Shown piece after piece: positions 26,179-60,458 of a DNA stretch of 64,000 bases. The position numbers were made by a program, and so were the translations under genes. The stretch is taken from the NCBI GenBank assembly GCA_051294905.1, contig CM119371.1, forward strand, positions 14,138,001 through 14,202,000, in the 5' to 3' direction. The notes beneath the pieces were generated by a model. That model was given only the letters and a program-made list of their open reading frames with translations, did not search any database and was not told the origin of the DNA. This DNA is from Botryllus schlosseri. Taxonomy: Eukaryota. Position 1 is the first letter of the stretch; each line of letters begins with the position of its first letter.

Positions 26179-27816
26179 CGTGAATGATCACACAAGCGCT
26201 AGTACATTCCTCGTTATCCCTTTAAATAAGTAGGCTAGAGACACATCCCCATACTGTGCAAAGAATGCGGCACCGAAGAAACCGCAGAGCACTAGCTGCT
26301 TTCTTTTTACTGCCATCGTGATATTAAGTTATAACGAGAGTGATATTAACGTTACATTCAAGGACTTATGGTCAATGATGTCAAGATGACCGGAACTTTT
26401 TTTCTGTCTACTGAAAGCTTCAAATGATAAAACTCTACCAGTTTTCGTTTGCGCGTAGCGAACGCGAACCGAATGTTCGTACCATTCATGGATCTATGGA
26501 ACTCTAGAAATATTTATCCCTGGGATCATCCTTACCAATGACATATCACAACCGATGATTTATTTTGCAGAGAAGAGTATAACGCTACTATAAGCTGTGT
26601 CGTTTTCGGCAATGATTTCACTTCACTTTCTTGCAGCATTGACATCTATGTTTGGTAGGTGAACTTGAAGATTTCATACTACCACAAAATAAAGTGCTAT
26701 GATCGTGCTGGGTTTCTTAAACTCCTTTTAACGCGGACCCCAAATTTTAACTCTGGTTTTCGTGATCCATCCTATCTGTCACTTATTCCAAGAAAATGTT
26801 TCTGATATGCATCACTTAAAATAAGCGTTCGAGATTTCAAGATGAGACTCCGTTCGCATGTTCAATAGAGTCTATCGACTAACTGCTATTCATATGGTGC
26901 CCTTCTTCACTTCGACATTAAAAACCCTCATTTGAATATTTGCTATTGCCATTGCCACCAAGGGCGACTCATCTGGTCCTTACGGGCGACCTGGCGCCCG
27001 CGTGCACCACGTTGGTGACCTACGGTATAAAGTGATTTTGGCACGGATTGGCCGTGCATCCATGATTTATAACCTGTACATTTTTTTTAGTTCACGAACC
27101 CCCAAAGGGTTTATGGAATCCAGATTAAGAACCCTTGGTATAATAGTTCGGGAAAGGATTTATTTAGCTGCGTTTCGATACCCTTCAAAAGGCTGGGTGC
27201 AGAGGTGCTTAGATTGATCACTCGTTTGTACTTGGCATGACCAAAAATATTCTTCGCAGTAGAAGCTTTCAAATAACTGTACATGCCCAATTGCCCATTG
27301 ACTATGTCCGATCAATGCACTTACTTCATATCTATAGCGTAACGTATTATCGTATGGCAGTTATGTAGCTATTGTGTGAGATTCGTGTGCGCCAAATATT
27401 TCAAATATATAGGCAGCGATTGCCAAAACGAGTGACCATCCAGTTTGTGGCTATCAGATTGAACTAGGTTTTTAGAAGATCAATATATTCTCTTCTGCTG
27501 TAAACATATATTTTATTTTCTGCACAGGAATTTTCGGAAAAGGTGCCACGCGATCAGATGAGGTTAGTCACATTTTGCGGGGACATCTTCTTGTTCATTG
27601 ATTTCAGAAAATGACCTGACGATTATGACACATCGGAAAACACTCGGTACTCGCAATAAGTTGAAAATACTTTCGTTTGTAACATTAATGTACGTTTAAC
27701 GTTACCTGCAGTTGAGTTAATTCGCATGGCCCTTAATTGCTGTAGTCATGTCAAACCAGAAAAATATTGCTATGAGCCTCATGTATTTATATGGAATGAT
27801 GTTGATGGGTTACGCA

Positions 27817-32761: not shown

Positions 32762-34220
32762 GTGGTAAGGTTCATGATCGGGAAAGCTCATTTTCTTCCT
32801 TAACATAAAATAGAAAAGGCTACATGATTGAGTTGACGACTTGTTTCTTGTAACAATACCACTATACTCGGGCTCAGGTTACGTAGTAATGTAGTATGCT
32901 TAAACTACCAAGTCAACAAAATGGGAAGCAATCGCCCGCTGTATCATGCACATTCGATGTCAGAATGATGCTTCGACTGATAAAATTTTCGCAGTTCAGC
33001 TGCAAACCTTTATTACCGTTTATTAACTCTCTCGCTACTGCAGCTTACAACCGCTAATAACCCTATCGCTGCTTGAATCATTGTTGCGTTCTGGCAGAAC
33101 CGTATGTTGCAAGACATCACAATTTGACAATATGTTTTCATTATCGTGTTAGTTATAATAAAATCCATCACACGCATACATTCAAATTACTGGTCAAATA
33201 CAGACAGACAGTCATATAAAATGTATAAAACGACATATTGATTTCAGTCGAGTTACGGAGTGATCTTCTTCCCAGGACAAGTTTGATACAGCTATTCCTT
33301 CTCTTGAATTGAAAAGCAGACAAGATCTGTTTTATTAAACAAGTCTGTGCCTTGGCGGGGAGAATAGGATCAAGGCAACGCGGAGCTACCATCAGCAGTT
33401 AACTCACTGTGCGGCACGCTGACTTCATTCAGAGCCCAATTGTGAATGATTTCTCCCAAGTTTAAGCTTGGCATGGTCTCTGATATCTGGGTAATTCCAC
33501 TGGTCTCATATTCGTGTGATGCACTGTCAGCCAAATGTTATTAGTGGTGATAATCGGCTGATCGTGGACATTGTCGCTGCAGGCTGAACCAATGCTTACA
33601 GGACGATATTTAATGAACTGTTGCCTCCGCCAACGCTGCATTGTTTTCAATTCACCATCAGACTTGTACGAATATTTGGGCATATCGCAATCGCTTTATG
33701 GCTTAAAGGCTAAATGTAGCAACAAAATAACTCGTAGATTAACGTACCGTCTTCGATGATTAGGCAACATTCATCGTTAACATATGACACAAAAAATTGG
33801 GGTGGAATAGGTGCATCAGGGCTGTTTAAATGGATAATTTCATCCGAAAAACACATCAAAAATAGAGCATTATCTGAGACGTTGAGCAAATCCGGAAGTA
33901 TGGAAAAAGTATCAAATATGGTATGGAAAATTGTAACTACGGTATGAAACGATTGAGACGGGTATGGAGTATGGAAATTTCCCATTCCATACCATATCAT
34001 TCCTGGCGTCATTATTATTTGCATTTTAGTAATCGGTGCAACAATAGCCCGCAATTGATACCCGTTATTAAAAATTCTGAGCTCGGTTCGTGTCTAGGCT
34101 TCCATCTAAAACCAAAATCAATTTAAAACAAACTTGTTTAAAGCATGTCACTCTCGTAATATCAGGATGCATTAGATTTTGAATCAATTACGGGAAGATC
34201 TTGCAAATCGTACTTCACAG

Positions 34221-34367
34221 GGAAAAGATTATAAAATCCAGTATAGACCTGGCGATGTTCTTATTGTTGGACTGGTCGCCGTTCATAATAGTGAAAATGA
34301 GGATTGCTCAAACGTACTGGAAGAGGGGATTCAAGCTGTAGAGACGATGAACATGATTATCGACCAG
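34221..34367 (+). CDS. mGluR-like exon: GKDYKIQYRPGDVLIVGLVAVH...EGIQAVETMNMIIDQ
   Basis: Acceptor ttcacag (alternative in-frame AG before 34176); donor gtatga. Confidence 0.85.
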
Positions 34368-37300
34368 GTATGAGTTTTCACCTCACTAAAATTGATTGTC
34401 CGAATATTTACGCTGTTCTGAAGTAGACTTAGTCATAGATAAGGTTGTATTTAAAACAAAAAACGATTTAAACAAACGTGTTTAAAGCATGAACCTTGTT
34501 TAAAACATGCTTTCTAATGATTTTTTGTTTGTTTTTAACCATGACGTCACGAATCATGAATTGTAATGTCACAGTGGATTGACATTGACCATTGAAATTA
34601 TAGGGTTAATATGGCTCCTTCGACGAAAAAGGCTCCCGGCACCCGGCATATACAGACCAAAAATATCTTTAACCGGGACTACATCGTTATGCAGCATTTT
34701 TACGGTCGGCGGCCATCATCATCATCAGTGCACCCAACGTTCCAATGATCTGTAACTACGTGCCATCACCGTAGAACCGACTACGATTTCAAGGGTTCCA
34801 GCCACCCTACATCGCATACGCCGACTATATTGGGTGCAGGCTGATACTACATGCTTTTTCGAAAGTATTTACACAAATATGGCATAATTATACAACGTTT
34901 GAAATAAACCCATTTTTTAAAAAGGAACTCTTTAAAACATGTTTTAAACAAAGGGTTTTAAAACACCATTTGTTTAAATGCAACCCCAGTCGTAAACCGG
35001 GATAATGCACGCAAATATAGGTTCGTGTGATAGCAGGAACCGTAGTGAGAGGAATGGTTTCGGTTGAAGATCTTAAAAGTACTCAATTACTGTTATCAGG
35101 TAATTGAAGGTGATCGCTTTCAAAATTGTAGCGCACATCTACCTCCGCGACTATCATTTTGAAGAATACCACCGAAGTTTCCTGACAAATTTTCAAATAT
35201 GACAACCCTGGCGTACCATTCCGTCGTCGTGAATCTATTCCTCCCAAACGCACCGATAATTACAGACTCATGATACCACTGAATAGTAACATAATGTGTA
35301 TCATGCCAGATCAACGCAGATACGGACATTCTGCCTGGAATCCAGCTGGGAAGCATTATAATCGATACTTGCTATTCTGACGCCGAAGCTGCGAGAAGGG
35401 TGAGACATGGCAGTGCATGCAACAGCTGTTGTGACGACTCGTGATTTTAGGAATCAGTTTGCAATTCAAGTGTTTTTTATTTGTCTTTCGCTTTTCGAAT
35501 CTGGTATTCCTAATCTACACTTCTAATCGCCCAATTGTGTTTGATTTGATTGTTTAATTACCGTTTGCCGTGTTGTCTTGTCTTGAGCTATGTATCGTCC
35601 TCCTGAATCTCTACTCACTCTTCAAGCATCGTAAGTTCAAGGAATATTCCGAATCTCGCTCTAGCACCATCTTATTTATATCAACCAAATCCCAAGTCTA
35701 CATTTTTTTCAATTTGAATCGTTTGGTATTAATAACTCGAATACTAGACAGATACTCAACGTTTCCCTAGTCCAAAAGCAGGTTTCAGCTCAGCAGACGG
35801 GATTCGACGACTGGGAAATCGGCATTGGAGAGTCGCTTCGAAAAAATCAGCATTGGCATTAATATATCGGAAGGAATTATGGACGAGATATTTGCCCAAA
35901 TCTGCTCGAATTTAGATCCCTATACCAGTGTTTTAGATATAATTTGTGTCAATTCAGTAGAGCCCTTCTAATCGCGAATCAGATCCAATATATAATTGCT
36001 GCAGAAAGTATAATATTTCGCTACTCATCAAATTTTACGTTATTTAATATATCGTACATCGTACACATTATTGCATTTTACTATAATCGATGGGCATTAA
36101 TACCTGTGCATTATTTCTTTGTGCCCATGTCCAACCTCTTGTGATATCAACTGCGCTACCGGCTCTGATAGCTATGTAGTATATAGAGCATCTAATTAGA
36201 CATCGACTCTGTAAGCGATATCTTTACGGATTACGATTATTCGACATGGATAAAATAACGCAAAATGATATATTCCGCTAATTTCGATTCTCAGGGGACC
36301 CGGTCTTGGATTCGAAGAGCTTGGAAATTAGCTTCCTTCTGTCGATTCATAGAATTCGGCTTAGACTTCAAATCCGGAATATAATTTGAATTTGAAAAGA
36401 TCCGATATATATTCGATAATTCGAATACTTCTCGTATGCAACGTGTCAAAATATGTTAAAATACTAAAATTGAGAAATTCAGTTGCACTAAAATCGCGCG
36501 AAGTGCGGAGAAAAATTTTCAACATAAAGAGGTCTAAAAACTCTACTTGGTGTTGATTTACGAATAAGTTTGGGTCACCTACGAGCTTTTTCGATTATGA
36601 AAATTTCCGTTTCAGTTTTAGTCACCAATTATTTGGCGTGTCAAGAAAAATCATTACACGTGCCTGGGGTTGCCGACCCCGTCCTATACCACATGCATGG
36701 GCAACACAATCAGGAAATATACATTTTATGATGATCAAGTGATATGTAAACCAGTGTCACTAAGACGAAAACTAACCTATCTAAAGTTTACTATATTTGT
36801 GCATTTCCAACTAAACATATTATGTCTCTTTGATCGCAGGTAATTTTGGATATTTTACCATTATTCTCGGACTGTGGTGCACGATATCCGAATCTGCAGA
36901 CTGGTAAATTATCCCCGACCCTCGTTGCAGGTACATGATATTCACGTATTGCTGTACAATTCGGCTCAACATTTGGCTTGTGAAATACGGTGTTGATATT
37001 ATTATGTTATTACAGGACTACAGCTCGATTCCTCGAACCAGGGCTGTTAAGAGCTGTTCTTTTTACCACCAATTCCTACTTTAAGGGTGGAGATAATAAA
37101 GTTGGATTAGCAATAAAGTCGATTATCGCGTTAGTCAGGATTTATCAACCCAGGATTAAGGAAACCGGTTGATCGTAGCGCATAAAGTTATTGATAATCT
37201 CGTGATTTAACAGATCGGAACAAACTAGAGATAACTATAGATATCTATTATAACTATAGTTATAAAAACTGCGTACACTGCGCACAAATACGCACGCCTA

Positions 37301-40300
37301 CGCACAAATATTTCCAGTAATGGTTTCCCTAAACAATCAACGAATTATTTACCCGCCATTGCAGAGCGATATCAATATTCTATAATCCGTTTCTTAGCTG
37401 TACCGCGCGAATTGAACACGACTTTCATTTAGTGATGATGATAATTCTTAGCTATTGCAGTGGGAGTATCGTTATCACCAGGCTGCTGTTTCATTAAATA
37501 AATTGACAACTGACAGCCTGTAACGCGTATTCGCATTATGATGCAACAGATAACGCCCCTTGACTGAAAACTCGGGAGACCTCGACTAACCATCGCGCGT
37601 AACCTTTTCCAATTTCATACGTCGCGATTAGCATAATTTAATCACACGATTAGCATTCTTCCGGATCAGCTAACTTTATTATCTTCGCCTGAAATGCGTC
37701 CCGATTAGCAGTTTTTAATCACATGATTAGCATTCTCCCGGATAAGCTAACTTTATTATCTTCGCCCTAAAACTTTAAACACACTCACTCTCCCTGAGCG
37801 AGTCAGTTCTGGAAAACAACTCCACTCCGGTTAATATACCAAGGCCGCGATTGCAACGCCCTGAAGCTGGGTTGCAGACAAGTTCACGGATTTGTTGAAA
37901 TATTTATTCGACTGAAGTGGTCGTTGAAACGGTTCACGTTAATAAATTCCTCGCTTGTAGTTTTTGGTATCAAAGATGTATTTCCGTGAATTATTTGGAA
38001 TACCAGTGTATAGGAATGAATGCGCGATGAATGCACTCATATCTAGAGCGAACACCGACCATTTATCCACAGCTGCGAAATCAATTGGTTGCGGGTTCGA
38101 TTCTGACCGAGGTCGACTCCAGAATCCTACCTAAGTGTTGGATGTTTATATACACTCCTCCTCGCTATCTGATCCGCGCACGCGGTGTCTTAAAAAGTCA
38201 AGAAATGGGCCGTACTACAAGTCGGAAGATACGGAATCAAAATAAAGACAATCGGTCTGGTGTAAATTAACATTGTAGTCGACAAATAGCATGAATAGCA
38301 CAAACATACAAACAAACGCCCACCATTTACTCAAATAATGAACCACGGACGCGAATTCTTCACCAACATACTCAACTGTTTCAGGAGTTGTCGGTGCTGG
38401 ATCCAGTAGCGTATCAATTCAGGTGGCAAAAATACTAAACGCTGTTTCAGTTCCTCAGGTAGGTAATATTCATTTCGCTGAGTCCACGTTTTCAGATTTG
38501 ACCTTTACAAAAATCAGGCACTGGGTGGATTCGGAATATGTAACGTTAGTGGGTGTAACCGTTAAGCTTTAGGTCATGTGAAGATTTCGGATCAATTCGG
38601 ATTAATTATATAGTGTTTTAGATGCGCACAGCGCCTTCGTATCATACCAAAGAACAAATGCCTATTATGTTTTAAAAATCAGCTAAATCAACCAAATAGT
38701 GCTCCGTGCATGTCTTTTATAGTAATGCGGAATGGAGAATTCCAAATATGTCCGAATCGCTGTGGCATACGCAACAAATATTCAGTCACATTTATTGATA
38801 TCGGCTACAGGAACTGAAACAAAACGATCTGAGTGTACAATGCAATTATTAAAAGTCGTTATCTTTGTTATTACATTGTTATATATATATTTAGAAGTAA
38901 ACGATTACCCGATCGGACGCATGAAACATCGATCCCTAATATAGAGCTATTTTGATATATCTTGGATAATGAAATCTGATTTCAGATCAGTTATTGGGCA
39001 AGCAGTCCAGAATTGAGCAACAAACGTCTGTACAAGTACTTTTTCAGAGTTGTGCCTCCGGATGATAAGCAGGTGAACAATAACTGTATTTCCGAACCAA
39101 ACATGTATGTTCTAACGAAATCATTACTGCACAATTACCTCATGAATTTTACCCTTTCACGGTTGCTCATTCAGTACCTAATGCTCACACCAATGTGGGA
39201 TGCGAGTAGGGCTGGTTAAAATCAAGTACTTGAGTGACTCGATTCTGAATCACGTATTATGCTTAATACTCGATTCAGATTCGAGTACTCGAATCATTGT
39301 GCCCAGCCCTACAGACGAGGAGTTGTTGAAGTGGATAATTGCCAGCAATGGAAACGATGATGCAATCGGTTTTATTGATACAAAATTTACAGACAAATTC
39401 GTTTTCTTGATTCAGTTGACTGATTTGTAATAATAGGCAGCAATTAGATTTCTTATTATAATTTTACCTTTATGGGTGCTGTAAGATGTATGGTAACATT
39501 AATCTAGGAACAGGAACGCACCCTGATTGCTTCACGATATAATGTGAAATATTGGATTTCATCAGGTGGAAGCAATTATTGCACTCGCGCAACAACGCGG
39601 ATGGAGCTATATATCAATAGTGTACGATGACGATTCGTATGGCTTGAATGGCTTGCATGGTAAGCAATTGAGATCTGAAATCAATTAGAGCTTCCGCTAC
39701 AATAGCTATAGCCTATAGGCTACTATCGCTGGAATACATGCACCCTACAATTTGGATATAGCCTACTTATGCTCAAGACACGCATCAGTAGTGCGGATCG
39801 GATCGATAAATTCTCTGGTCCTACTTCGATCCTGTTCTTATAGCTCTGGTCCGACTCCAAGGCCGGATTCTAGAAATGACCGTGATCCGGTCCGGAAAAC
39901 TCCGATAATAATTATCTACTCACAGGAATGTATTGAATATTGATTGAAACAACGCAAACAGGACATTAAAAAACTCAATAATCAAACCCAACACTTATCT
40001 GAATTAATTATGCCAATTTGGACTTGGCATGTAGTTCATTTCCATTAATGCTTCACATGAAGTATTGATTCGAGGGTAGAAGAAGGTAAGGCTGTCATAT
40101 TCTTAGTAAAGAGTACTGATCCGACTCCCGGCAGTATCAGAAACAGAGCTGATCCGGCTCCTGAGAAAATACGGCCGGATATCCAATCCGGCTCCGGACC
40201 ATGCTCCGCCCTATCGCAGAGGCCAATTTACGCATACAAAATTATATCCTGCGAAAGGCTTTGATGTTGAAAGACGCACTATCTTTTCTGCTATTTTTAA

Positions 40301-43300
40301 CAATAATGATAATGCTATATTAAAACTGTTATTTTCTCATAAAATTCTATTAAATCAATGAATTTGAATATGATTCAATATAATAAGGTCTCCGAATAAC
40401 ATGTTCGAGTGGTGCATCATTTCCGACCCAAGCAACTGAAAAAACCGTGTATCGATACGTCTAGTAAACTATGAAGGTGGCCCTAGGCGTGCTTGTAAAT
40501 TCCCAAATCGTTTTGGCAAATCGGAGGAGCAACTGGTAAATCATTTGTTGTGCGAATTCAGAACTACAAGTACAAGCGGAAGACGAAGGAATTTGCATTG
40601 GCACGTTTCAGCCGGTTCCGCGTTCCGCATCCGATCAGGATTTCCGAAATATTGTTGAGAGTTTACTGACAGAAAAATCGAAAGGTACATGCTGCATTAA
40701 AACCGTTATAAGAGCGCTACAAGAAACATAATGTCTCTATTTTCCTTTTGCCTCTACATTTCGTTCTCTATATTCGCGATGTACAACGTAGCTCAGGACA
40801 GTTATAGTACAACTATTATTGAACTGACACCTTTTGTGAATCGGATAGCGACAAGACCTGAAACTATCTGCGGGCCGCTCAAAATCCCGACCGTGCCGTA
40901 TGCTGCCTGCCCCTGGATTAAAATGTTGTGTTTGATCTATACCGCAGTACATTTCTGATGAAGGTTTTGTTTTCGGGTATCACATTCAGGGCGTGAATAC
41001 ACATTCTATTCGCTGAGACTGCAATACGTTGCTATCTATGCCACGACAATTACAATATGCATAATTGTTCGTGTAACAGTCGTGGTGATGTTCACAAGTA
41101 GCATGTCGGCGTCCAGGCTGATGAAGGCGTCGGCAAAATACATGGACAAAGCGACAGACCTCTTGTGGGTTGGTAGCGATGCCTGGACCAATGAAATTCC
41201 TCTTTCAAACTACCATTTCGATGACAGACCTATGCATGGTATTATGCATCCTTTGAGTTTTCCGTTACACGATGGATTAGCACAATCTTGTGTTCCAGAC
41301 GCGGTGGGATTCCAACCTGCGGCGCAAGAGCTGAAGGCATTTCGACCATACTTCCTCAATTTAACCCTGGAGGAAAGTCTCAACACGTTCAGAAATCCAT
41401 GGTTTTCGGAGTATCTTGAGCACGTAAACTTTTGTACAGTAGGTGCGAAATGTAAAACCTGACTTACCAAAAGCTGTAGAGACCACCGTGTAGCCTTCCG
41501 CCATCTGCAGTATCGCTAAATTTGCTCTCTTATGTAGCCTATTTATAGACGTCATCTCGTGCCACATAATTCATCTGTATTTCTAATTAATTTGAAAGCG
41601 TTGCTTCTGAATCTGCATTGAGCATTAACGTCATCATTCATCCCCGTGGCTAAAATCTATCATCTCAAACTATTCAGGGAGCACACATCCGATATTAGTC
41701 TCCGATATTCAGAATGTAGAGTAAGATATAGATCATGCATGTTTGTTTACCTTGGTGATAGTGAATGATTCCGGTGGTGAAGCGTACGCAGTGGCATTGC
41801 TCAGGAGTTTGGCGTGTGAGGGTCTTACCCAAGCGGTACGGCACTGAGCATTATAGAGAAATTTATAAACCGCCCTGAAGTACCAATTACGCCGCATAAA
41901 CTGACGAATTGATATCCCGTTGGAGACATGCAATATAGTTTATTGAATAAACGACTACACTAATGGCATTGAAATCGCGACCCTGCTCGGGATATGAGAT
42001 TGGAATCCTAGTCCAAATCCATATCTAGAACACACACAATGTCCAAATCCGGCCGCTTAGAAATTCCACAGCGTTGGAAATTGCATGTCCAAGTCTAAAT
42101 CCAGAACAGCTTCAAAACAATAATAAATCCCGATCCAAATGTGACCAATTTTTCAAAACCGTCATTACAAGTCCAAATCCAACACCGTGCTCTTTGCTGT
42201 TCTCTCATTGATGGGGCTTACTTGTCGAAATAAAACCAGCAGTTTGACGCCTATCAACGCAATTGATGCGTAATGACGGGATATAAACTCTGCTTTCTAC
42301 ACCAGCAGGAGACGATGGTCCGGGAAGGAAGTGCGATCCCGATGAGAAATTGGATCCAAATTCATTTGAAAAGAGACCCACTTTAGAGGTATAATATATA
42401 TGATTCGATTTGGTTATTTTAGCAGAGATTGTGGCCATGAAAGACCCATGAGCAATAAACATAGTTGTCGATTCAAAGCAAGTCCCTCATCTTCGCGCAA
42501 AGGATAAATGTTTACTAAGAGAGATCGACAGGCTAATTACCCCCGAAGGGGTAATATATCAGAAATTTGGAGTGGTGCAGTGGTATTCTAATTATCACTC
42601 TGCTTTACGAACGGTAGTTCCAGTGCGGGTTCGGATCTTGGTCATTACAGCTGTGATTTTCCGCTTGCGCATTGCTTGTTGCAACTATCTTTTGCTGGTA
42701 ATTGCTCTTTCCAATGGACTGGGTTTCCCTGTTGAAACACTCCAGTCTTTTGCCTATTTAATAAAGAATTATATCACCTGTTAATCGTAACGCCTTCCGT
42801 TGCAGCATGTTGGAAATGCTATGTTGGCGATTATACACGCACTGAGAGAGTTCCATGTTTCCGAATGTAATGGGATTCCGGGATTGTGTCCAGCCATGTC
42901 GATGCATAATGGAACAAACCATCTGGCCACAAAGCTGATTCCCATATTGAAGCGGATTAACTTCACAAGTGAGCTGGTCAACGTACAGTAGGGCTGTTCA
43001 AAAATAACTTTTTTTCCCGGATTCCAGCCATTCACTGATTAAATTGTCAGGTTACCCTAAAAAACGCTGCACACCAAATTTGGTTCAATTCTAACAAGTA
43101 TAGGACTCCGCAGATCCAAATAAAAATTTTAATTTATTATGGAAAATTAAAAAAATAAATTCAAATTTTTCTGCCAACCCCATGAAATTGTTGAGCTGTC
43201 TTCAAAGACGTTGCAAAACAAATTTGAGTCAATTCCGACCAGTAGAAGCGGAGTTATGTGAGTTTTACGATGATAATCCGCGGATTATCAGATATCGGTG

Positions 43301-46300
43301 GATAATCCGTGATTTATCAACGAAAAAGTCACATGACTCCTTTTCTACTGGTCGGAATTGACTCACATTTGTTTTGCAACGTCTTTGAAGACTGCTCAAC
43401 AATTTCATGGGGTTGGCAGAAAAATTTGAAATTTTTTTTTTCAATTTTCCATAATAAATTAAAAATTTTATTTGGATCTGCGGAGTCCTTTACTTGTTAG
43501 AATTGAACCAAATTTGGTGTGCAGCGTTTTTTAGGGTAACGTGACAATTTAATCAGTGAATGGCTGGAATCCGGCAAAAAAAGTTATTTTTGAACAGCCC
43601 TAACGTACAGTCGTACAGCAATGTGTTCCGGGGCAAAGGAATTTGGAGATGGCGAAATGTCTATAATCATTTAGGACGTAACAAATGCATCGTAAATCGC
43701 TTGAAAGTTTAGCTGATTATTCAACAGATCGGGTTATCATCATGTTCGAACTATAGAAAACTAGGAGCGGGGCCCCATCCGGGGTTATTTCGAAGTATAA
43801 TGACACGTGTGTCCTTTGCGCAATAAAATAGATAGCGAATTGCAAGAAATCGTCATCAACTAATCAATTTACGCTATCTATATGGACAGATGCCAATGGA
43901 AAGCATGTGTATTTCGACTCGAACCAAAATGGATTGGCAAGCTTCTATGTATTTCGTTACGACGCCGACAAAGAAGTTACAACCGGAACACTCAGACAAA
44001 GATGGGAAATAGTAGGAGATTTCGATAACAAGGGTAGTGTTTTGTTTCATCTGGTTTTAAGGCTCATCATACCTACTACTGACCAGTGTTGGGATCAAGT
44101 CACTACCTTCGAGTCACGAGTCATCTCGAGTCATTGCACATTTTGACTCGAGTCAAGTCAAGTCAATCGATTTTCAAAGGTGACTCGAGTCAAGTCAAGT
44201 CACTCGTTTTTTGGAGGTGACTCGAGTCAAGTCAAGTCAAGTCAAGTCACGAGTCAAGTCACAATTCAAGTCAAATTGAATTTTCGAAGTATGAGTGATC
44301 ATTCAAATTCATTATATTTTACTGGCTATGTTAAAGAGATCAATTGGTCATTTATCTTGAATCAAATAACGAATATAAAGTTAAATATACATGCAAAAAT
44401 GCGTTGTATCGCTCACGCACACGTAGAACTGCTAATAAAATACGTAAGTAGCTGTATAGCTACATCAGGGGTGTCAAACGTACGACCCGCCAAATGATTT
44501 CATTCGGCCCGCGAAGAAATTCTGAGTATATGGTGAAAATTGCGTGATTTTATCCAACACATATCTCGAATTTGCAGTAAGAAATACCACTAATAAATAT
44601 TCCTTCAAGATAGCAAATTTCGAGTATGTTCATAAGCCACTATAACAACCCGACAGCGGAGTTGTGATTGTAGTTATCGTCGGGAGAAAATCGCTGACAT
44701 TAACACCCCCAATTCCGAGAATGCGAAAAAGTGCATATACTGAGTTTAGGGTTAGTAATATTTAGGAATCATTTGACTGGTGCGGCCCGCGAGTGATCTG
44801 TGCATTTGAATTCGACCCGCGACGTCAGTTGAGTTTAACAACTCTGAGCGACATCTCTTATCAGCAAAAATAGAGGATGGAATACGAAGCCTCGAGAAGA
44901 TGAAAGAAATTGATATCGTACAATACACTAGCCATCTATACACATCGGTGAGGATATAAATACATAAAATATATTTGTTAGACTTAAATCATACAAGAGG
45001 GTTGGTAAAGGTGAGCGCCGTGCAATGTAAGGACAGAGCCGTCCAATAAACAGCGATACGTTGCTATTAAATTAATCTGCTATTACGACAAGGCAAGCTG
45101 TGATCATTTCGTATGCGGTCAGTGTATATGTGATGTAACAATGCAGGATCAGCGAAACGTACAATCAGTGAACGACTGGTTGCTCTCACAAGTTAAAGTG
45201 GCGTATCGTGAATAATTCGAACATGCACAGAATACATTGATTTAGTCGACACCGTTTACTTGATGACTTGAAATTGACTCGTAAATTTTGCTCCGAGTCA
45301 CGAGTCAATCCACATTTTTGAAGCGCCGAGTCAAGTCAAGTCAAGTCATTTTTGCAAACTGACTCGAGTCAAGTCAAGTCATTCGAAAAAGTTGACTCGA
45401 GTCTGACTCGAGTCAAGTCATGACTCGAGTCATCCCAACACTGCTACTGACACACATTATTAGGGATGCTCAAAAGTGAATAATCGTACGAATTTCCACC
45501 GTACCAATCTTTGATCTCTTGGGTGCGCTGTGTTTCTGCAATTGGGAGTGTTCGGGCATGTACCACCGCTTCTAATTCTAAGAATTGTCACCATCTCATA
45601 CGACAATGTCTTGAAATGACTTCGAAACGGTACGGAACTCTAGAAGGTTCGCGATCGAATTGGCAATTCCTCGACCTGGAAACTATACCTCTGTTTTACT
45701 CTGATTGTACATATGTAGGCCTACGGTTGCGGGCTGGCCTTCCATAAGCACGTTTACCGATTATCGTGGAAGCTCTGACGTGCTGACGAAGCTAGAACTA
45801 GAAGTAGAATTAGAACTACTTGCGTTTGAAAACTAGAACTATAGAGAACTGGAACTTACGCCCTTTAAAATTCCGAAAATGGTCTTGCTAAATCACACTA
45901 GCTAATAACATACAATATGAATTACTGAGTTTCAAATGAACGAAGAAATATTGGCGATATAATCAGCATCTCAAAAGGACGGGGTTTCGTGTTTGAAATG
46001 AGAGCGGTTTCGACTATTAAAAGTTACCTCTTGACCACTGCTAGTAGTGATGACTAGGGCTGGACACAATGATTCGAGTACTCGAATCTGAATCGAGTAT
46101 TAATTTTGATGATTCGAGTCGAGTAGTAAAAGACGACTTTTTCAAGTGCTGAAATTATACGCTCCTCGCAACTGAAAGTTAATTCACTATCGAGAATCAT
46201 AGTTTTGATACCATTTTCTACTGAGGAAGCCTTGAAATCTTGATTGGCAGTGTCGCAGCATACGAGACATAGTACAAAGTTACGAACGTCACTGGAAATA

Positions 46301-49300
46301 ACACATTTCTAAAGTCATGATCATCCCACAACATTGTCAAGAAGTGCAATGAAATCGGTATGGTCGAAAAGATACCAAAGTATCTGTAATGTGACGGATA
46401 ACATACATAATGTTCTTCGTAGTGGCATAAAAGGTGCAAATTTCAACTTTGACATAAGTGATACTCGAATACTCGACTCGACACGAATCGTAATACGTGA
46501 TTCAGAATCGAATCACTCAGGTACTCGATTTTGCCCAGCCCTAGTGATGACTCTGACTTAGGAATTGCTGCAAGAACATTATGCAACAGAACAACGTTAT
46601 CACGAATTCACGATCCACCCCAAATGTCGATACGTGTTTTCTATAATTGTTCTACAACTAAATGCCTTTTTAAATGCGCAACTAGAACTACTCACTTTCA
46701 AAATCAGCATCTAGAACTAGAGCTAGAACTGATAAAAATGGTAGTTAATTGTACGTCTACTACGTAGATTGTTAGTCTGGGCAAGTTCGGTTCCATTTCA
46801 CACTTCGCTATGCTTTCCGTAAACAGCAATAAGAGTAACGACTGCGCCGAATTCGAAACTGAATACTACGGAATCGGTATGCAGTAAGCCATGCGGCTAC
46901 GGGGAGGCTACAATCCCACAAGCCAAGGTCCGGGCGTGAATATCATGCGTGAGAAAAATATTCGAAATTTTTAAACCCCGTGTTTGCATTCAGATATGCT
47001 GCTGGCATTGCGAACGATGTGCGTACGATGAATTTGTGTCGGAAAACGGCACAATGTGTACCCGCTGCACGCCTGGTGAAAAACCCAACTCCGAGAAAAC
47101 TGGCTGCGATCTGATTACGATCACGTATGCTACCGCATTAGTGTCACAAATTGTGGCCTAATGAACCGTAATGTAGAACAACATTTTCAACCAAAGATGT
47201 TATGATGACGTGAAAAAATTGTGATGTATGAAAAAGGTTTACAGTGCCGACCCACCATGGATCATTTGCTAACGCGAACCTTCGAATTTCTGAGATCCCA
47301 CACACGGAAAGCGAATGTGAACCAGACGTTCACATCATCCCTATTATCTGCTCTACGAGAATAGCCTGAGAGTCGGATGAGACTTACGTTGTGTGCTCTG
47401 CGAGATTCAACCACGAATAAAAGATTCAATATCGATTAAGCGGTGTCAACAATCTCAATGATACGTTCTCTATACTATATATAATATGAATGCATTTACG
47501 TGAAAGTAGTTTGGTTAAGTTTTCATGTCAAGTCGGAGGGGTCTGTAATGCGAAATATCGTTACTCAAGTGAAACGGGGAGTAATAGGTTGGGAGGCACT
47601 GTTTTCGAGGTACCGTACGAGCAGGGATTTAACTGAGAACATGTATTTCTGAAAACAGGTTTACTTCGAGCCATCATAACTAGCGTGACAAGTATATCAA
47701 TTCCGTGACCGAGCGGAATTGCTTGGCATGTCATTTTGTATATGGTGGTGAATTAGGTATCCCTTCTGTGCATAATCGTAATTCAATAATATTTTGCGAA
47801 CGTTATTACAGCACCGCATTAACATCTATTCGAAGTAATTTACATTCAGCATTTCTGTCTAGAGAGATATCTTATGGATCTGAATACGGCATTGCATGCG
47901 CGTGGCTGAGTTGCCTTGGACTGCTTCTAACATCAATTGTGACGGTGATATATATCGTTCATCGAAAAACGATCATGGTCAAATCTTCCGGGAATGTAAG
48001 TATAGTATTTTAGCGTATATTATACGTCGTAAATGATAATGCAATGTTATTCGCATACAATGCAATATGAAGACGAATGTAATATACTTTAATGATAAGG
48101 GCAAATTAGGACAGCTACTAAGTATCCGTTGAATCAAATAGTGAATTCGTCTCTTCAGAAAGCCCTTGTCTGAATATGTCTATGAATTATGGCTGAAATC
48201 GAACCTGACCATGGCCGCATTTAGATTACTTATGTGGCCCACGGCCGCATTCCAGGTCATAGTCCCAATGAACTAATTGGACACCAAATACCCATGTTAA
48301 ACTGTACATGTTCATTTCCTGTGAACTCCTGTCCAATCTACTTTTTCACATCGTCTTACTATACGTAGCGAAATCTCTAGTGATCATGTATTGAATAGTT
48401 ACAGCACGTTGTTATGGTCGAGCAAAGCGCGAAATTTTTTTCAGATTCACGAATGAATTTCGTCATCAATATTAGTAGTTTCACATATTACCATCAAATA
48501 TTTATAATTTCTCAACCCCTGTAATCAAATTCACCGATATAGTTGATGGAGGGATTGTTTTCGAAAATTCAGGGCGAGTTATAAATGATGATGCATATTA
48601 GAGTGGGCCAATTTCTATTAGTCACTATGCTGCACTCTTTTATTTCTTGACCTCCCATCAAGATTGTCGGTATAGTGGTAAGATATTGGAATCTCCCAAA
48701 CGTACCAGAAACAAATTTCCTTCGTGAGGAGCGCACGTTTCCAAGTTGGCGTTTCTATATCATGCATCATTTTCTCCCGCTGCTCGCATCTGTTCTGCAC
48801 TCTGGGGCTCTGATTGCAGAAAGCGGTACTATATTAAAATCGAAAAATGAAGGTGCAATGAATCGCGATGAGCGCGAAGACAATTTCAATAGCAATTAAA
48901 TTTCTAAAATATTAATTACTCATTCAAAAATTCGGGAGTCAATTCGTACATTCAATTTTCATCTCGACGGTCGCCAACGCATACTAGTTGAATTACGTGT
49001 CCACGGTAGCACAAATTTGCTTCTACGACCGCAGGTTTCCTACCTCTGGCTTAGTTCTTTTAACACTCTGTTGATTGAGAGGTCATTTTGCGCACCTGCA
49101 ATCTATAGCGATGTAGTAGATGTGTATTGTGGTGAATTTTTGTTTTTATGACTTATGGAAAATTTGGGGTTCCGCGAAGGCTTGAAGATTAGCGTAAGTG
49201 TCCGCCGGTTATTAAAGATGGAGAACCACTGTTGAAAACCTTGCCAAAAACTGCAGCCAAAACTTGAGCAGGCCCTACGTAAAAACACCTCATCAGAAAT

Positions 49301-52300
49301 ATGTCGGCGCTTACCGCGTTTGACAACATGCGGAGTCTCAATACGAATCAATATCAGTTCAGCAGTGGTCTTCATGCTCGTGTAACTCACACTTCAATAT
49401 TTTTTAATGAAAATAGTTCAAAACTCCAAACACACGACTTTATTCCAGGAGCTCAGTTTCTTCATTCTCTTCGGAATAACTGTGAGTTTCCTCAACTTCC
49501 TCGCCATGACTGCATCTCCCACTCTCGCATCGTGTGTCACGGCAAGGATCATGCTTGGCGTAGGACCAGCTTGTATATACGCCGGTTTGCTAACGAAGAC
49601 CGTGCGAGTCGTCATCATTTTCAGGTCAAGATCAGCTCTATCCATACAGGTATCGTTTTATTTATTGATCAATTCCTGCTATATTTTGAACGCAAGGCAT
49701 TGGATATCACTCAAGCAAAGTTGTAAAAAGTGGGTTGAGCATGACTTTAGCTTGAAACATGCGTCTCTTCAGCATATGACTTCCAAGAACTAACCCGAAA
49801 CACAGCCCCGAAATCAACCCTTATATATATCCTAACCCCAAGTCTAACCATACCCCAACCACAAATCCACCCATAACCCATCCATAACCCGTTATTTGAC
49901 CCAGATGTTCATGTTTCGGAAGCCCAATTGTGTAGGGTTACCATATTTTGGAATCGGTAAAGGAGGATACTATTTCAAAATTTTCAAACTTGGAATCCCG
50001 GAGGAAAATCTTTAAAAAATGGCAAATTTTTCCCACTTCATGGTCGGTTGAATGAAAAAAGGTCAAATTCCGCGCCCAGTGCCCAAAATACATTTTTTTC
50101 ACATTATCAGGTGGCTGACAAAAAAAGGTCAACTTTCCGGCTCAGCTCCCGAAATAGCCCCCGGAGCTTTACTTCAGTGTTGATTTACTGTATTTCGGTC
50201 GAATTCACCCTACATTTAACAAGAATTCTAAAAAAGAGGACAAAATCTCAAAAAGGAGGACATTAAGCGTCCTTGGAGGACATTTTCAAATATCTGAAAA
50301 AGGAGGACAAATCCTCATAAAGGAGGACGTATGGTAACCCTGAAATTGTCGCATGCTGAAGTGTCGCATGCTAAAATGTCTCATGCTCATACGTGCACAG
50401 ACCGTTCCATAGCGATGACGATCATAACATTGGACACAGTATGTATTAACGGTGTAAACACTGTTCCAAGTTTCCAAGATTGACACTTGAACATAACGGC
50501 AGTAATTCAGTCATCAAAGTCGAATATGTTGATATGTGTGCTGATCTGGCCTCTTTCAATCCCTATATTTCACGGTATGGGTCGATTTTGACGGTGTTCC
50601 ATTTCGCGACAGGTGATGAAATTTCTGATGGTATATCTCGATGATGTCTTCCAATAGTGCGCTACGTTTAACGATTGGAATGCAAATATATATTAGTTAC
50701 TTTTATATTTTCGAATGTCGTTTCGCCACTAAATTACATAATGTTATAGATCAGTATAATGGTGCTTTCAGGTGGATTAATTACATTTGCTTTATGCCTT
50801 GCTATTCTACATATACAAATTCTCCATAGATGAAGTTGTATCTGCAACCGAGCTGTCAAATCGTCGTGACGTCTGTACTTGTTTTCGTACAAGTTATCGT
50901 GGCTGCGCTGTGGCTCACCCTCAGCCCGGTCGCCATCACCATGCATTACCCAACACACGAAGTGGTGTACCGAGGCTGCGCTCATCTGGTCGACCTCCAA
51001 GTTCTTATGGCAATTACATATCCGCTTTTGTTAATCACCGTATGCACTGTGCTGGCCACTTTCAATAGAAAGATTCCAACTGAATTCAACGAAACGAAGT
51101 ACATCGGTGAGTTGGGATAATTTTTCAGCGGTCTTTGACTTTATTCAGCAATATTTCTCAATTTCTAGGATTCTCCATGTACTCGACTTGTGTTATCTGG
51201 TTGGCATTTCTGTCTATATTCATCACAAATACCGAAGATCTTAGCCAACGGGTGAGATTTACTGCGTACAGAGTTTTCCGGCATCTTGGAACCTGTTCGC
51301 GAACTGTACGGCACCGAATGTGTTCGTGATTCGTTCACTTTCGCCAGTGAGATGCGAAACCTGAACCTTCCTAATTCAGAAGTGTTCTTGAGCTCATTTG
51401 ATATCTCTAGTCTCTTTACAAACGTTCCGCTGCAAGAAACTATCGATATTTGTGCGAACGCGCTTTACGGCGGTAAGCTAGCACCACCATCAATGCCGCG
51501 TAAAGTTTTTGTTGAACTTTTACAGGCAGCTACATGTTCTGTTGAATTTAGCTTTAACGATGTTATCTATAAACAAATAGACGGCATATCGATGGGATCT
51601 CCCTTGGGACCTACTTTGGCTAACATTTTCGTAGGATTTTATGAGGTCGAGCTTCTCACCCAGCGTGTTTCCGTCAAACCGGTGTTGTACCGACGTTATG
51701 TAGACGATACTTTTGTCATTTTCAGAAATGAGATAGACTGTGATCAATTTCTCATTCACTTAAACTCGCTTCACCCGGCTCTGTTATTCACAATTGAAAA
51801 AGAACGAAATAACTCATTGTCATTTATGGACGTTTTAGTCGAAAAACATGATACCAATAAATTTGAAACATCAATCTTCCGGAAACCGACATTCACTGGC
51901 CAATACCTTCGTTGGAACTCATTTAGTCCTAGCCGCAGAAAAATCAACCTCATAGGCACCCTCGTGCATAGAGCGTTGATGATATGTTCGGGTAATAAAC
52001 TGAACTCAGAACTTGACAATATCCGGAAAATCTTACTTGATAACGGTTACCCTGAACATGTCATCAACCGTGGCATAGAGAGGAAAGTAACGCATTTCAA
52101 TGCAGAAAAGTCAACAGAGCCTACCGAACGAACAACCAAAGATGTTTACATCCATTTACCTTGGATAGGGCCTATTTCCACCCGCTTTGAAAAGCAATTG
52201 ATTTCATCGGTCAATAAGTGTTACGACACAGTGAAGACCAACGTGATTTTCACGACAACGCAACTGCTCCCCGCAACACGTAAAGACGTGCTACCCGCAC

Positions 52301-54174
52301 TTCAGCAAAGCAATGTAGTTTACGAATTTAAGTGCCACTGTGATTGTGGCTACGTGGGAAGAACGTCAAAGCGCTTGCAGGAACGCATAAATCAGCATGT
52401 CCCTAGATTCATTAGAACACGCTCGATGAAAAGCTCACCCTTAACTCACCCGCTCAAGATTGATGCGGACCAATCAAAGGCCATAAATTCTGCAATTGGC
52501 AAACACTTGTTGGATAATCCCGCCTGTGCGAAAAATTATCGAGACGACAGATTTCGCATACTCGGAAAGGGTCGCTCACACTTTCATTTGTGCGCCTTGG
52601 AGTCGACTTTTATCAAAATACACCAGCCAAGGCTGTGTCAACAAAAAGAGTTCGTGTATCATTTAAAAATAGTACATTGAACGCTCTCGTATTCGACATT
52701 TCGTGCTGGTGACGTCATATTTTGTGTTACGATTGTTGATATACGCTGTTCTTTCGAATTCTCTACTAGTTGCTGACGATTACCCCTGACGAGTGTCAGC
52801 CGAAAATATTCGGGTTCATTTTAATATGAATATACTATTCAATTGTATATTGAAGTTCTGTACCTCAAAGAAGCTGTTCAGAGTTTTCCGAATAAATCAA
52901 CCTGGTTTCGTTACGTTAAGGTTCTGACAACGTCGATTTGTGTGAGTCTCAGCGCCACTACTGTGTTGATATGTTACTTTGGACCAAAGTGCTTTAAAAT
53001 CATATTTCGCCCTTCGTTGAACAACATGAACTCAGTGCTGTCGCCGAAGTAAGTGTATTTTGAGTGTGCAACTGTGCATGTACGCAGCTCACGCTATATA
53101 GCGAATTATGGCTCCTTCGACGAAAAGGGTTTCCGACCACTGTCATAAAATGACCAAAATATCTTTAACGAGGACTACATCGTTATGCAGCATTCTACGG
53201 TCGGCCGTCATCATCATCAAAGCACCCATTCCGTATCAATAATATATATCTACTCTGCTGTAACTGTCGAACCAACGACGATTTTGGGGGTTCCAGCCAC
53301 TCCATATCGTACACGTGCAAATTGTCCGTAGGCTCATACTCCATGTTTTTCGAAAGTTCTGTACGATTATGGCATAATTAAAAGGCATTATTTTTAAACA
53401 TTTTAAAATACCGTTTGTTTTAAGTACAACCCTGTTTAGAGGAGTTACCGTAACTGCGTTAGATGTGTAATATATATTAGATTTTTGTTATGTGAATCAG
53501 CTAACATTTGGGGTTCCTCGAAGCCTTGCATATCTTCGTGGGATTTATCGGGGTCAGGCTGAAGAACCACTAGAGTGCCAGACTGTACTAACCCCACACG
53601 AGTTAGAAAAGTAATTTATTACTGACAGCTTCAGAGCATAACTATGAAAAAAGAGGAAACCAGCCAGTCGCGAATCATTTTTCTACGTCGTGTGTGTATG
53701 AGTATATAGCTATCGTGAAATGAAACATCCGTGCGATTCGTATAGCGCTTTTAGTGCTTTGCGATCATATGACCTAATTGAATAAGGACTAACCGAAATG
53801 ATTTTGTTCCGAAGAAAATGATAGGAATTGGTAAGGCTCAGATAAGTACCAGATCCACGTAAAAAAACGGCATCAGGAATCTATTACTCTGCATTCGCAA
53901 TAAACTATGGGACGAATTACTCCTCGATAGTGAATCCAAATCCCTTGGGACTGACACCACATATATGCTCACAGCGGAGTTGACGATCTTATATCTATAT
54001 ATTGTTCTTTTCAACTTGGAGAAACCATATCTTCTGTATGTAAATCTTGTTTTGCGCATTCATCATTCCAATGTTGATTACAATAATCCACCTGTCACCA
54101 TACATAATTACAGGAATAGCTCATACAATCAGTCAGCAACCGCATCAACTTCGCCGACGCAAACAGCTATGTGA
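34221..54174 (+). CDS. Metabotropic glutamate receptor-like class C GPCR (VFT + 9-Cys domain + 7TM), 20 coding exons, 837 aa without the unidentified signal-peptide exon
   Basis: Hand-spliced GT-AG exons total 2514 nt, all phases are consistent and there is no internal stop. Motifs: PGDVLIVGL, GAGSSSVS, PQISY, RVVPPD, WVGSDAW, RNPWF, CCWHC, LLTKT, FNETKYIGFSMY, FGPK. Confidence 0.95.
35310..35399 (+). CDS. mGluR-like exon: INADTDILPGIQLGSIIIDTCYSDAEAARR
   Basis: ccag / gtgaga, phase 0-0; matches IN....LP...LG..I.DTC. Confidence 0.93.
36840..36930 (+). CDS. mGluR-like exon: VILDILPLFSDCGARYPNLQTGKLSPTLVA
   Basis: gcag / gtacat, phase 0-1; bridges both neighbours and carries the loop Cys. Confidence 0.8.
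37085..37767 (+). mobile_element. PIF/Harbinger-like MITE, intronic
   Basis: TIR gggtggagataataaagtt / aactttattatcttcgccc; TAA TSD. Confidence 0.85.
38070..38317 (+). mobile_element. tRNA-derived SINE family 2, diverged intronic copy
   Basis: B box ggttcgattct; matches the reverse complement of 61046-61318; CAAA tail. Confidence 0.75.
38385..38458 (+). CDS. mGluR-like exon: GVVGAGSSSVSIQVAKILNAVSVPQ
   Basis: ttcag / gtaggt, phase 1-0. Confidence 0.95.
38986..39072 (+). CDS. mGluR-like exon: ISYWASSPELSNKRLYKYFFRVVPPDDKQ
   Basis: ttcag / gtgaac, phase 0-0. Confidence 0.95.
39207..39311. mobile_element. Short TAGGGCTGG/TCGAAT-family MITE
   Basis: Ends tagggctgg / ccagcccta; internally deleted relative of 46055-46543. 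Confidence 0.75.
39566..39659 (+). CDS. mGluR-like exon: VEAIIALAQQRGWSYISIVYDDDSYGLNGLH
   Basis: atcag / gtaagc, phase 0-1. Confidence 0.95.
40562..40684 (+). CDS. mGluR-like exon: ELQVQAEDEGICIGTFQPVPRSASDQDFRNIVESLLTEKSK
   Basis: ttcag / gtacat, phase 1-1; GICI motif. Confidence 0.92.
41080..41238 (+). CDS. mGluR-like exon: VVVMFTSS...LLWVGSDAW...RPMH
   Basis: aacag / gtatta, phase 1-1. Confidence 0.88.
41299..41442 (+). CDS. mGluR-like exon: DAVGFQP...RNPWFSEYLEHVNFCTV
   Basis: ttccag / gtgcga, phase 1-1. Confidence 0.88.
42306..42388 (+). CDS. mGluR-like exon: (A)GDDGPGRKCDPDEKLDPNSFEKRPTLE
   Basis: CAGCAG acceptor (start 42306 or 42309) / gtataa, phase 1-0. Confidence 0.85.
42806..42968 (+). 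CDS. mGluR-like exon: HVGNAMLAIIHAL...CNGIPGLCPAM...INFT
   Basis: ttgcag / gtgagc, phase 0-1. Confidence 0.93.
42989..43602. mobile_element. 614-bp near-perfect palindromic (foldback) MITE
   Basis: Arms of about 300 bp are reverse complements (tagggctgttcaaaaataac...); perfect TSD acgtacag. Confidence 0.95.
43890..44033 (+). CDS. mGluR-like exon: NANGKHVYFDSNQNGLASFYVFRY...WEIVGDFDNK
   Basis: gacag / gtagtg, phase 1-1. Confidence 0.9.
44084..45443 (-). mobile_element. hAT MITE, GACTT/CTCGAG family, copy 4, with a nested Buster MITE at 44466-44846
   Basis: Perfect TSD ctactgac; nested element TSD agctacat/agcgacat. Confidence 0.93.
46055..46543. mobile_element. hAT MITE, TAGGGCTGG/TCGAAT family, inside a CTAGAA-repeat element
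   Basis: Ends tagggctgg / ccagcccta; perfect TSD gtgatgac. Confidence 0.92.
46827..46927 (+). CDS. mGluR-like exon: AIRVTTAPNSKLNTTESVCSKPCGYGEATIPQAK
   Basis: aaacag / gtccgg, phase 1-0; start of the Cys-rich domain. Confidence 0.9.
46994..47124 (+). CDS. mGluR-like exon: ICCWHCERCAYDEFVSENGTMCTRCTPGEKPNSEKTGCDLITIT
   Basis: ttcag / gtatgc, phase 0-2; completes the nine cysteines. Confidence 0.95.
47863..47995 (+). CDS. mGluR-like exon (TM1): EISYGSEYGIACAWLSCLGLLL...KTIMVKSSGN
   Basis: tctag / gtaagt, phase 2-0. Confidence 0.93.
49449..49649 (+). CDS. mGluR-like exon (TM2-TM3): ELSFFILFG...LLTKTVRVVIIFRSRSALSIQ
   Basis: ttccag / gtatcg, phase 0-0. Confidence 0.95.
49933..50342. mobile_element. 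TAGGGTTACCA/GAGGAC-family MITE; relatives at about 55967-56189 and ending at 16381
   Basis: Ends tagggttaccata / tatggtaaccctg; TSD caattgtg/aaattgtc. Confidence 0.8.
50830..51106 (+). CDS. mGluR-like exon (TM4-TM5, ICL3): MKLYLQPSCQ...NRKIPTEFNETKYI
   Basis: catag / gtgagt, phase 0-1. Confidence 0.95.
51169..51251 (+). CDS. mGluR-like exon (TM6): GFSMYSTCVIWLAFLSIFITNTEDLSQR
   Basis: tctag / gtgaga, phase 1-0. Confidence 0.95.
51286..52680 (+). CDS. Penelope-like reverse transcriptase + GIY-YIG endonuclease (N-terminally truncated, uninterrupted 464 aa)
   Basis: Motifs SFDISSLFTNVP, QIDGISMGSPLGP, RYVDD and VVYEFKCHCDCGYVGRT...LES. Confidence 0.95.
   Translation: MEPVRELYGTECVRDSFTFASEMRNLNLPNSEVFLSSFDISSLFTNVPLQETIDICANALYGGKLAPPSMPRKVFVELLQAATCSVEFSFNDVIYKQIDGISMGSPLGPTLANIFVGFYEVELLTQRVSVKPVLYRRYVDDTFVIFRNEIDCDQFLIHLNSLHPALLFTIEKERNNSLSFMDVLVEKHDTNKFETSIFRKPTFTGQYLRWNSFSPSRRKINLIGTLVHRALMICSGNKLNSELDNIRKILLDNGYPEHVINRGIERKVTHFNAEKSTEPTERTTKDVYIHLPWIGPISTRFEKQLISSVNKCYDTVKTNVIFTTTQLLPATRKDVLPALQQSNVVYEFKCHCDCGYVGRTSKRLQERINQHVPRFIRTRSMKSSPLTHPLKIDADQSKAINSAIGKHLLDNPACAKNYRDDRFRILGKGRSHFHLCALESTFIKIHQPRLCQQKEFVYHLKIVH
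52772..52815 (+). ncRNA. Minimal type I hammerhead ribozyme of the Penelope-like element
   Basis: accc-CTGACGA-g[tgtcagc]c-GAAA-atat-TC-gggt: intact core, 4-bp stem I, palindromic AATATT stem III, predicted cleavage after C52811. Confidence 0.85.
52921..53048 (+). CDS. mGluR-like exon (TM7): VLTTSICVSLSATTVLICYFGPKCFKIIFRPSLNNMNSVLSP
   Basis: ttaag / gtaagt, phase 0-2. Confidence 0.95.
54114..54174 (+). CDS. mGluR-like last coding exon: KNSSYNQSATASTSPTQTAM*
   Basis: ttacag acceptor fits phase 2; Ser/Thr-rich tail; donor gtgagt at 54185. Confidence 0.7.
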
Positions 54175-60455: not shown

Positions 60456-60458
60456 AAT

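Follow-up and report, generated by a model that had tools for sequence, protein, structure and literature searches.

The window analyzed here, 64,000 nucleotides of Botryllus schlosseri DNA (assembly GCA_051294905.1, contig CM119371.1, positions 14,138,001 to 14,202,000 of the forward strand), contains on its plus strand, at window positions 26612-54174, a gene for a G protein-coupled receptor (GPCR) of class C that is related to the metabotropic glutamate receptors (mGluRs). The protein belongs to a clade of ascidian receptors of this kind (GRMs). Because it keeps the contacts that grip an alpha-amino acid and has lost both basic residues that hold the acidic tail of glutamate, it is likely to sense another amino acid; with moderate confidence, the ligand of the intact receptor is an L-alpha-amino acid that is not glutamate. 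An initial annotation had placed the receptor at 34221..42968 and had described it as probably not a glutamate receptor, a description that the pocket table and trees presented below support. The exons in that interval are real, but they are only 11 of the 22 that make up the gene.

The 22-exon model, built from the sequence, has 2589 coding bases and encodes 862 amino acids. All of its introns are of the GT-AG type and there are no internal stops or frameshifts. A Pfam scan took in 18 of the 22 exons, and 11 of these matched ANF_receptor, NCD3G or 7tm_3 at E<0.05 in the order of the profiles, so that the receptor identity of the exons is not a matter of chance. The class C layout of Venus flytrap domain (VFT), cysteine-rich domain with nine cysteines and seven-transmembrane domain (7TM) is present in one open frame. 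An Atlas search confirmed 7tm_3 and returned nothing further. The best PDB sequence matches of exon 19 (50830..51106; TM4-TM5 and third inner loop; PF00003 113-200, E 1e-13) were mGlu7 and mGlu3; word-index searches with single exons and a PDB sequence search with exon 3 gave no match. The AlphaFold model of a Styela relative (predicted local distance difference test score 83) reached template modelling scores of up to 0.80 to solved mGlu structures, which confirms the fold and is silent on the Botryllus pocket.

The pocket was compared in a 34-row residue table, in which mGlu1 numbering was carried over through the guinea-pig mGlu3 and fish mGlu5a rows (R, S, T, D, Y, D and K at the seven columns, as ordered in PMC9138782). 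All five alpha-amino-acid contacts named in the initial annotation are in register. Exon 6 (38385..38458; PF01094 54-77) supplies Ser143 at the S165 site (codon 38405-38407). Exon 7 (38986..39072; PF01094 78-106, E 4e-6) supplies Ser166 at the T188 site (codon 39001-39003) and Asp186 at the D208 site (codon 39061-39063), together with Arg181, Gln189 and Trp164, the last at site 186 (codon 38995-38997). Tyr214 at the Y236 site (codon 39638-39640) and the adjoining Gly215 are encoded in exon 8 (39566..39659; PF01094 107-137, E 6e-5), and Asp295 at the D318 site (codon 41178-41180) in exon 10 (41080..41238; PF01094 182-224). PMC1764893 gives an eight-residue signature for amino-acid binding (S, S/T, R, D, Q, Y, G, D/E, with Ser or Thr allowed at 188), and the Botryllus protein has all eight, as Ser143, Ser166, Arg181, Asp186, Gln189, Tyr214, Gly215 and Asp295. 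The five proximal contacts are likewise kept in all five other distinct named ascidian proteins.

The distal end of the pocket is different. Classes I-III have Arg78, usually together with Lys409; in the Botryllus protein these sites hold Ala65 (codon 34335-34337), in exon 3 (34221..34367; VFT lobe 1), and Thr387 (codon 42380-42382), in exon 12 (42309..42388). The other distal residues are Glu61 at site 74, also in exon 3, and Arg385 at site 407, which follows Lys384 in exon 12. The pattern of proximal contacts kept and distal bases lost that had been compared with the insect mXR is therefore borne out in the table.

The register at site 78 was obtained from exon 3 alone, which aligned with ten class I-III receptors in a profile-profile comparison (probability 92%, E 6e-7) that puts Ala65 opposite Arg83 of guinea-pig mGlu3. 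The register at site 409 hinges on the junction of exon 12 with exon 13 (42806..42968; amino acids 390-443). The joined exons aligned to mGlu3 without a gap over 18 residues around the site, and exon 13 was anchored on its own by hhalign (E 5e-5). Exon 12 alone gave no hhalign profile match, and no reads over the junction were seen in two partly read RNA runs.

Among the rows with coverage of site 78, Arg78 is present in all eight of classes I-III and absent from all five ascidian proteins, in searches that were seeded from this gene and that R78-bearing ascidian receptors could have escaped. The R78L change in rat mGlu1 lowers the potency of glutamate 1000-fold (as cited in PMC9750798). Of the two residues that had been said to confer glutamate selectivity, K409 is the weak marker: Lys409 is kept in only five of nine class I-III rows (the hemichordate row and two crab rows have Leu, and a nematode row has Tyr). 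Moreover, PMC9750798 describes K409 as the sole contact whose mutation leaves binding without severe loss, and the Ciona protein XP_078484401.1 has Lys at 409 although R78 is absent.

The bulky Trp at site 186 noted in the initial annotation is present as Trp164 but is not special to this protein. Site 186 is Trp or Phe in five of six distinct ascidian proteins, Phe in seven of seven mXR-clade rows and Trp in a sea urchin row, and it is Ala or Ser in all nine class I-III rows. A private change at this site was rejected on the ground that most ascidian rows, and every mXR-clade row sampled, have an aromatic residue there, and Trp164 is, on this sequence comparison, a trait of the clade or family. 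The urchin row, a protein named 'mGluR8' (P0224), has Ser78, Trp186 and Gln409, groups with the mXR clade at 94/94 and is probably a misnamed class IV receptor.

The remaining distal sites vary from one ascidian receptor to the next. Where both sites are covered, which is the case in five ascidian proteins, site 74 is Glu, Gln, Ile, Val and Asp, and site 409 is Thr, Tyr, Ile (in a gapped stretch), Phe and Lys. In contrast, one distal set (Gly74, Asp293, Arg323, Glu407, Gln409) is common to six of seven mXR-clade rows, and between bee, scorpion and flatworm hardly any change is seen in the distal pocket of mXR. This set is not kept in the Botryllus protein.

The possibility was considered that the protein is still a receptor for glutamate, or for aspartate or a sulfonate, in which Arg385 or Lys384 takes the distal anion and glutamate is sensed at low affinity. 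The description of both bases as lost had overlooked Arg385, a base in the 407 column that might compensate and that is the chief structural reason for keeping glutamate in play; the column is Glu or Asp in nine of nine class I-III rows and Glu in seven of seven mXR-clade rows. The Ciona relative with Lys at 409 also fits this alternative. However, no other ascidian row has Arg there (Phe, Leu, Leu, Ile or a gap at site 407), so that the residue is unique to the Botryllus protein, and Glu61 at site 74 adds a negative charge. The R78L potency loss and the data on DmXR, the Drosophila mXR, which is activated by L-canavanine at a half-maximal concentration of 0.5 mM and by no classical amino acid, glutamate included (PMC2695807), also speak against a glutamate receptor. 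This alternative is considered unlikely.

Several points nevertheless weigh against a non-glutamate amino acid as the ligand. Lys384 and Arg385, which precede site 409 by two to three residues, could supply a base, and Lys409 is a weak marker, since it varies even within classes I-III. The schistosome receptor SjGRM7, with R78L and six of the seven contacts lost, was reported to respond to glutamate only (PMC9750798), and the Styela GRMs were allowed a possible low-affinity binding of glutamate (PMC9138782). The variety of distal pockets could be fast neutral change, the overall identity being only about 40%. The ligand may also be a non-standard one, by analogy with DmXR. Literature searches found no ligand for an ascidian GRM and nothing usable on the role of residue 407.

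Relatives were collected with exon 19 as a phmmer query; among 1.84 billion representatives, 255 matched at E<=0.001. Among the best 150 of the 255, the full model scored highest against Clavelina and Styela proteins (614 and 584 bits, the next score being 468). The Clavelina protein, used as a query in turn, gave 33 matches, among them a Ciona protein and a further one from Styela. Identity to the ascidian 'GRM4/7-like' proteins was 38-40%, as compared with 32% to mGlu3, 30% to mGlu5a, 27% to a fish CaSR-like protein and 25% to a T1R1-like protein. The 56 near-full-length rows, less eight outgroup rows, gave a 48-row FastTree, from which 20 redundant, long or unnamed rows were dropped for a 28-row IQ-TREE analysis. 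For a 24-row set, one urchin and one crab protein took the place of six rows, and for a 22-row set the outgroup was removed.

In all three IQ-TREE trees the Botryllus protein fell with 100/100 support in a clade with the GRM-like proteins of Styela, Ciona and Clavelina, and it is a member of this ascidian GRM clade, as the suggestion of a lineage-specific group had anticipated. Its nearest relatives were the two Styela proteins (95/89, 89/88 and 90/86). The Ciona (XP_078484401.1) and Clavelina (XP_076817387.1) proteins, both named 'mGluR4-like', lack Arg78, have an aromatic residue at 186 and form a separate sub-branch (100/99-100). An unnamed transcript protein (P0123) formed a long branch of the ascidian clade in FastTree; it has lost proximal contacts, with Trp at 236 and Asn at 318.

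The clade of classes I-III excluded the ascidian proteins in each tree (88/87, 100/100 and 100/100). Approximately unbiased (AU) tests on the 24-row set rejected a placement with group III (p 9e-6) or group II (p 1e-5); group I was represented in the trees by one row, and the rejections concern groups II and III. Orthology to mGlu4/7 or to mGlu2/3 was rejected on these trees and tests, and database names such as 'mGluR4/7-like' therefore reflect no orthology. Vertebrate mGlu1-8 resemble the Botryllus protein in fold and proximal pocket and provide its best matches among solved structures; they differ in possessing R78 and K409, and identity to them is about 30-32%. Furthermore, identity as CaSR, V2R or T1R was rejected, since a split with 100/100 support lies between these receptors and every mGluR-type row, with CaSR/V2R-OlfC/T1R comparison rows that were without GPRC6A and true mammalian CaSR and T1R.

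Two further clades are without R78, the mXR clade and a clade that holds Capitella 168165, a protein listed as class IV in PMC6307864. Class IV is defined there by replacement of Arg78 and Lys409 with residues that are either non-polar or acidic. In the Botryllus protein both residues are replaced and the backbone contacts are kept, although Thr387 is polar, like the Gln of the mXR rows. With Drosophila DmXR/Mangetout and other members of class IV it shares Ala at 78, a residue other than Lys at 409, an aromatic residue at 186 and intact backbone contacts. In the 28-row tree the ascidian proteins joined both class IV clades at 71/94, and a placement with mXR or with all of class IV gave p 0.21 in the AU test. 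A fast-evolving class IV (mXR-type) receptor is the favored placement and a rather probable one, although unproven. Against it, the 24-row tree put the ascidian proteins next to the outgroup, as sister to all other mGluR rows (95/92), a position that looks like long-branch attraction. A position as sister to classes I-III was unrejected (p 0.07), and the counts of shared site patterns were mixed and left class IV and classes I-III unseparated: mXR alone shared two of them, the second class IV clade alone seven and both together seven, as compared with four for classes I-III alone and eight and ten for classes I-III plus one class IV clade.

As previously reported, Styela clava has four GRM genes in tandem (Sc-GRM3/4/7a/7b), the only GRMs listed in that survey, which cluster with Ciona GRMs apart from those of vertebrates, keep the five alpha-amino-acid contacts but neither distal one, and may, like DmXR, bind other molecules that resemble amino acids (PMC9138782). 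The kept-five, lost-two pattern is thus already in print for these GRMs and for class IV (PMC6307864), so that the rewired pocket of the initial annotation is real without being a one-off. The Styela proteins resemble the Botryllus protein in domain layout, in both parts of this pattern and in Trp at 186, and are nearest to it in three trees. They differ in that identity to the 'mGluR7-like' XP_077973472.1 and XP_039261395.2 is only 38-40%, in Leu or Thr at site 78 as against Ala, in Ile or Tyr at site 409 as against Thr, in Thr at 188 as against Ser, and in Arg at 407, which only the Botryllus protein has. Three metabotropic glutamate receptors were counted in Ciona (PMC2396169), and the mGluR table of PMC6307864, the class IV paper, lists no tunicate. 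New here are the rejection of the group III database names, the difference in distal pocket from one ascidian receptor to the next as against the near-fixed pocket of mXR, and the likely tandem paralogue at 63605. By itself the gene is ordinary, the pocket pattern being known; its value is that of a further testable member of an orphan family.

In the proposed mechanism, Ser143 and Ser166 would hold the alpha-carboxylate of the ligand, and Asp186, Tyr214 and Asp295 its alpha-amine. A pocket with no base for a distal carboxylate, narrowed by Trp164, would favor side chains that are neutral or polar. The flytrap, on closing in a dimeric receptor, would act through the cysteine-rich domain on the 7TM. 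By analogy with DmXR, which couples to Gi/o (PMC3646046), signaling would probably proceed through these G proteins. Action in peripheral or anterior sensory tissue would be expected by analogy with Styela, where grm7a, grm7b and grm4 are expressed at the anterior larval trunk (PMC9138782). Since no two of the ascidian paralogues have the same distal pocket, the family is likely to divide several amino-acid ligands among its members, which would act as peripheral nutrient or cue sensors. The variety of distal pockets would fit such a diversification of ligands, as described for fish OlfC. The OlfC, CaSR-like and T1R receptors of fish show a like pattern, with a conserved proximal signature, a variable distal pocket and an expanded family (PMC1764893); they differ in having only 25-27% identity and in splitting from the mGluR-type rows at 100/100.

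A non-protein amino acid or amine-like cue, of the canavanine type or taurine as a settlement signal, was considered as the ligand instead. DmXR binds canavanine and ignores all classical amino acids, and its activation needs Thr176, the equivalent of T188 (PMC2695807). Taurine attracts Ciona larvae as a cue, and the authors of that work suggest that it acts on a neurotransmitter receptor whose pocket has been altered (PMC12922724); the anterior larval expression in Styela would suit such a role. However, the Botryllus protein keeps the full alpha-amino-acid signature, and taurine has no alpha-carboxylate. The mXR distal set is not kept either, so that selectivity for canavanine need not carry over, and a ligand of this kind is judged quite improbable.

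Ascidians have been reported to be without T1R and V2R receptors. A wider scenario, tentative and itself rather doubtful, is that ascidians took the opposite course to vertebrates: the glutamate-binding classes I-III were lost, class IV alone was retained, and its tandem expansion gave a small set of amino-acid chemoreceptors, each copy with its own side-chain pocket, in convergence with fish OlfC and T1R; the present gene would then be a candidate sensor of feeding or larval settlement cues. Were the clade class IV, names such as 'mGluR4/7-like' would mislead and the sister group of vertebrates may have no true metabotropic glutamate receptor. If true, the reading of glutamate signaling in tunicate larvae would change.

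Expression data came from the two RNA runs, of which about 3% and 6% was read. Depth was zero in eight exon-bearing bins, and there was no GT-AG joint among the 15 of 847 joints listed, which counts against the proposed reading. The zero depth is weak evidence, as such a receptor would be of low abundance, and the mapping was swamped by repeats. The X1 contigs cross intron-exon borders and therefore represent DNA or unspliced RNA. At position 41299, the first base of exon 11 (41299..41442; amino acids 315-362; donor chosen so that the frame of exon 12 holds), the window encodes Asp315, in place of a Gly that is invariant in ten class I-III receptors; both sets of read contigs have G, and hence Gly, and Asp315 is either a rare allele or an assembly error. 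Within a tandem array, the gene could be a silent or decaying copy or an obligate partner, with no ligand of its own, as the nil RNA depth, Asp315, a lone exon-like relic at 9255-9416 and a retroelement frame in one intron would suggest. However, the 2589 coding bases are free of stops and frameshifts, the splice sites are canonical, the nine cysteines and the whole signature are kept, and the contigs restore Gly at 315. Such a copy is very unlikely.

The relic at 9255-9416 (plus strand) is a segment resembling exon 13 (38% identity, E 7e-7), preceded by AG and with a GC-type end, and is probably what is left of an older paralogue. A second full gene around 9255 was rejected because exon-wise tblastn of the window gave no partner exons.

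At the other end of the window, 25968-27001 matches 62912-64000 with 83% identity over 1102 columns that include the signal-peptide exon. As the first exon and the upstream kilobase are nearly copied there, a tandem array like that reported in Styela is likely in Botryllus, and the sequence at 63605..63647 (plus strand; 11 of 14 amino acids identical to exon 1) is likely to be the first exon of a paralogue that continues past the window end.

The remaining exons, like all of the gene, are on the plus strand. Exon 1 (26612..26654; amino acids 1-14), with the start codon and a hydrophobic, signal-peptide-like segment, was chosen by eye with a GT donor and a phase that fits exon 2, and is further backed by the 79%-identical copy at 63605. 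Exon 2 (27528..27562; amino acids 15-26) was inferred from AG/GT and compatible phase, and exon 22 (54114..54174), a short Ser/Thr-rich tail with the stop, from phase and AG. Exons 1, 2 and 22 were thus placed by phase and splice signals, and exons 2 and 22 are the least certain of the model. In the VFT are exon 4 (35310..35399; amino acids 76-105; PF01094 13-40, E 0.004), exon 5 (36840..36930; amino acids 106-135), a variable loop with Cys117 placed by AG/GT and phase, exon 9 (40562..40684; amino acids 221-261), with Cys232, and exon 14 (43890..44033), which ends the domain. The cysteine-rich domain starts in exon 15 (46827..46927; PF07562 2-19) and continues in exon 16 (46994..47124; PF07562 24-54, E 1e-5), the nine cysteines being spread over the two. 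TM1 is in exon 17 (47863..47995; PF00003 2-42), TM2-TM3 in exon 18 (49449..49649; PF00003 44-106, E 1.5e-10), TM6 in exon 20 (51169..51251; PF00003 202-223) and TM7 in exon 21 (52921..53048).

The window also contains mobile elements and repeats. The intron between exons 20 and 21 contains, at 51256-52677 (plus strand), a Penelope-like open reading frame of 474 codons that matches reverse transcriptase (E 9e-8) as well as GIY-YIG (E 0.007). A long inverted repeat at 43000-43600, just 3' of exon 13, is probably a miniature inverted-repeat transposable element. The segment 30730-31060 is a highly transcribed repeat with many RNA reads and a loose poly(A) end at 31061, and looks like a family of the short interspersed element type. 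On the minus strand, a 201-codon frame at 59947-60549 with a weak zf-RVT match (E 0.005) is the end of a retroelement lacking long terminal repeats. Finally, 57031-62907 is a mosaic of blocks that recur at 7791-8885, 14530-15692, 17453-17933 and 29687-33098 with 80-88% identity and that are either repeats or traces of local duplication.

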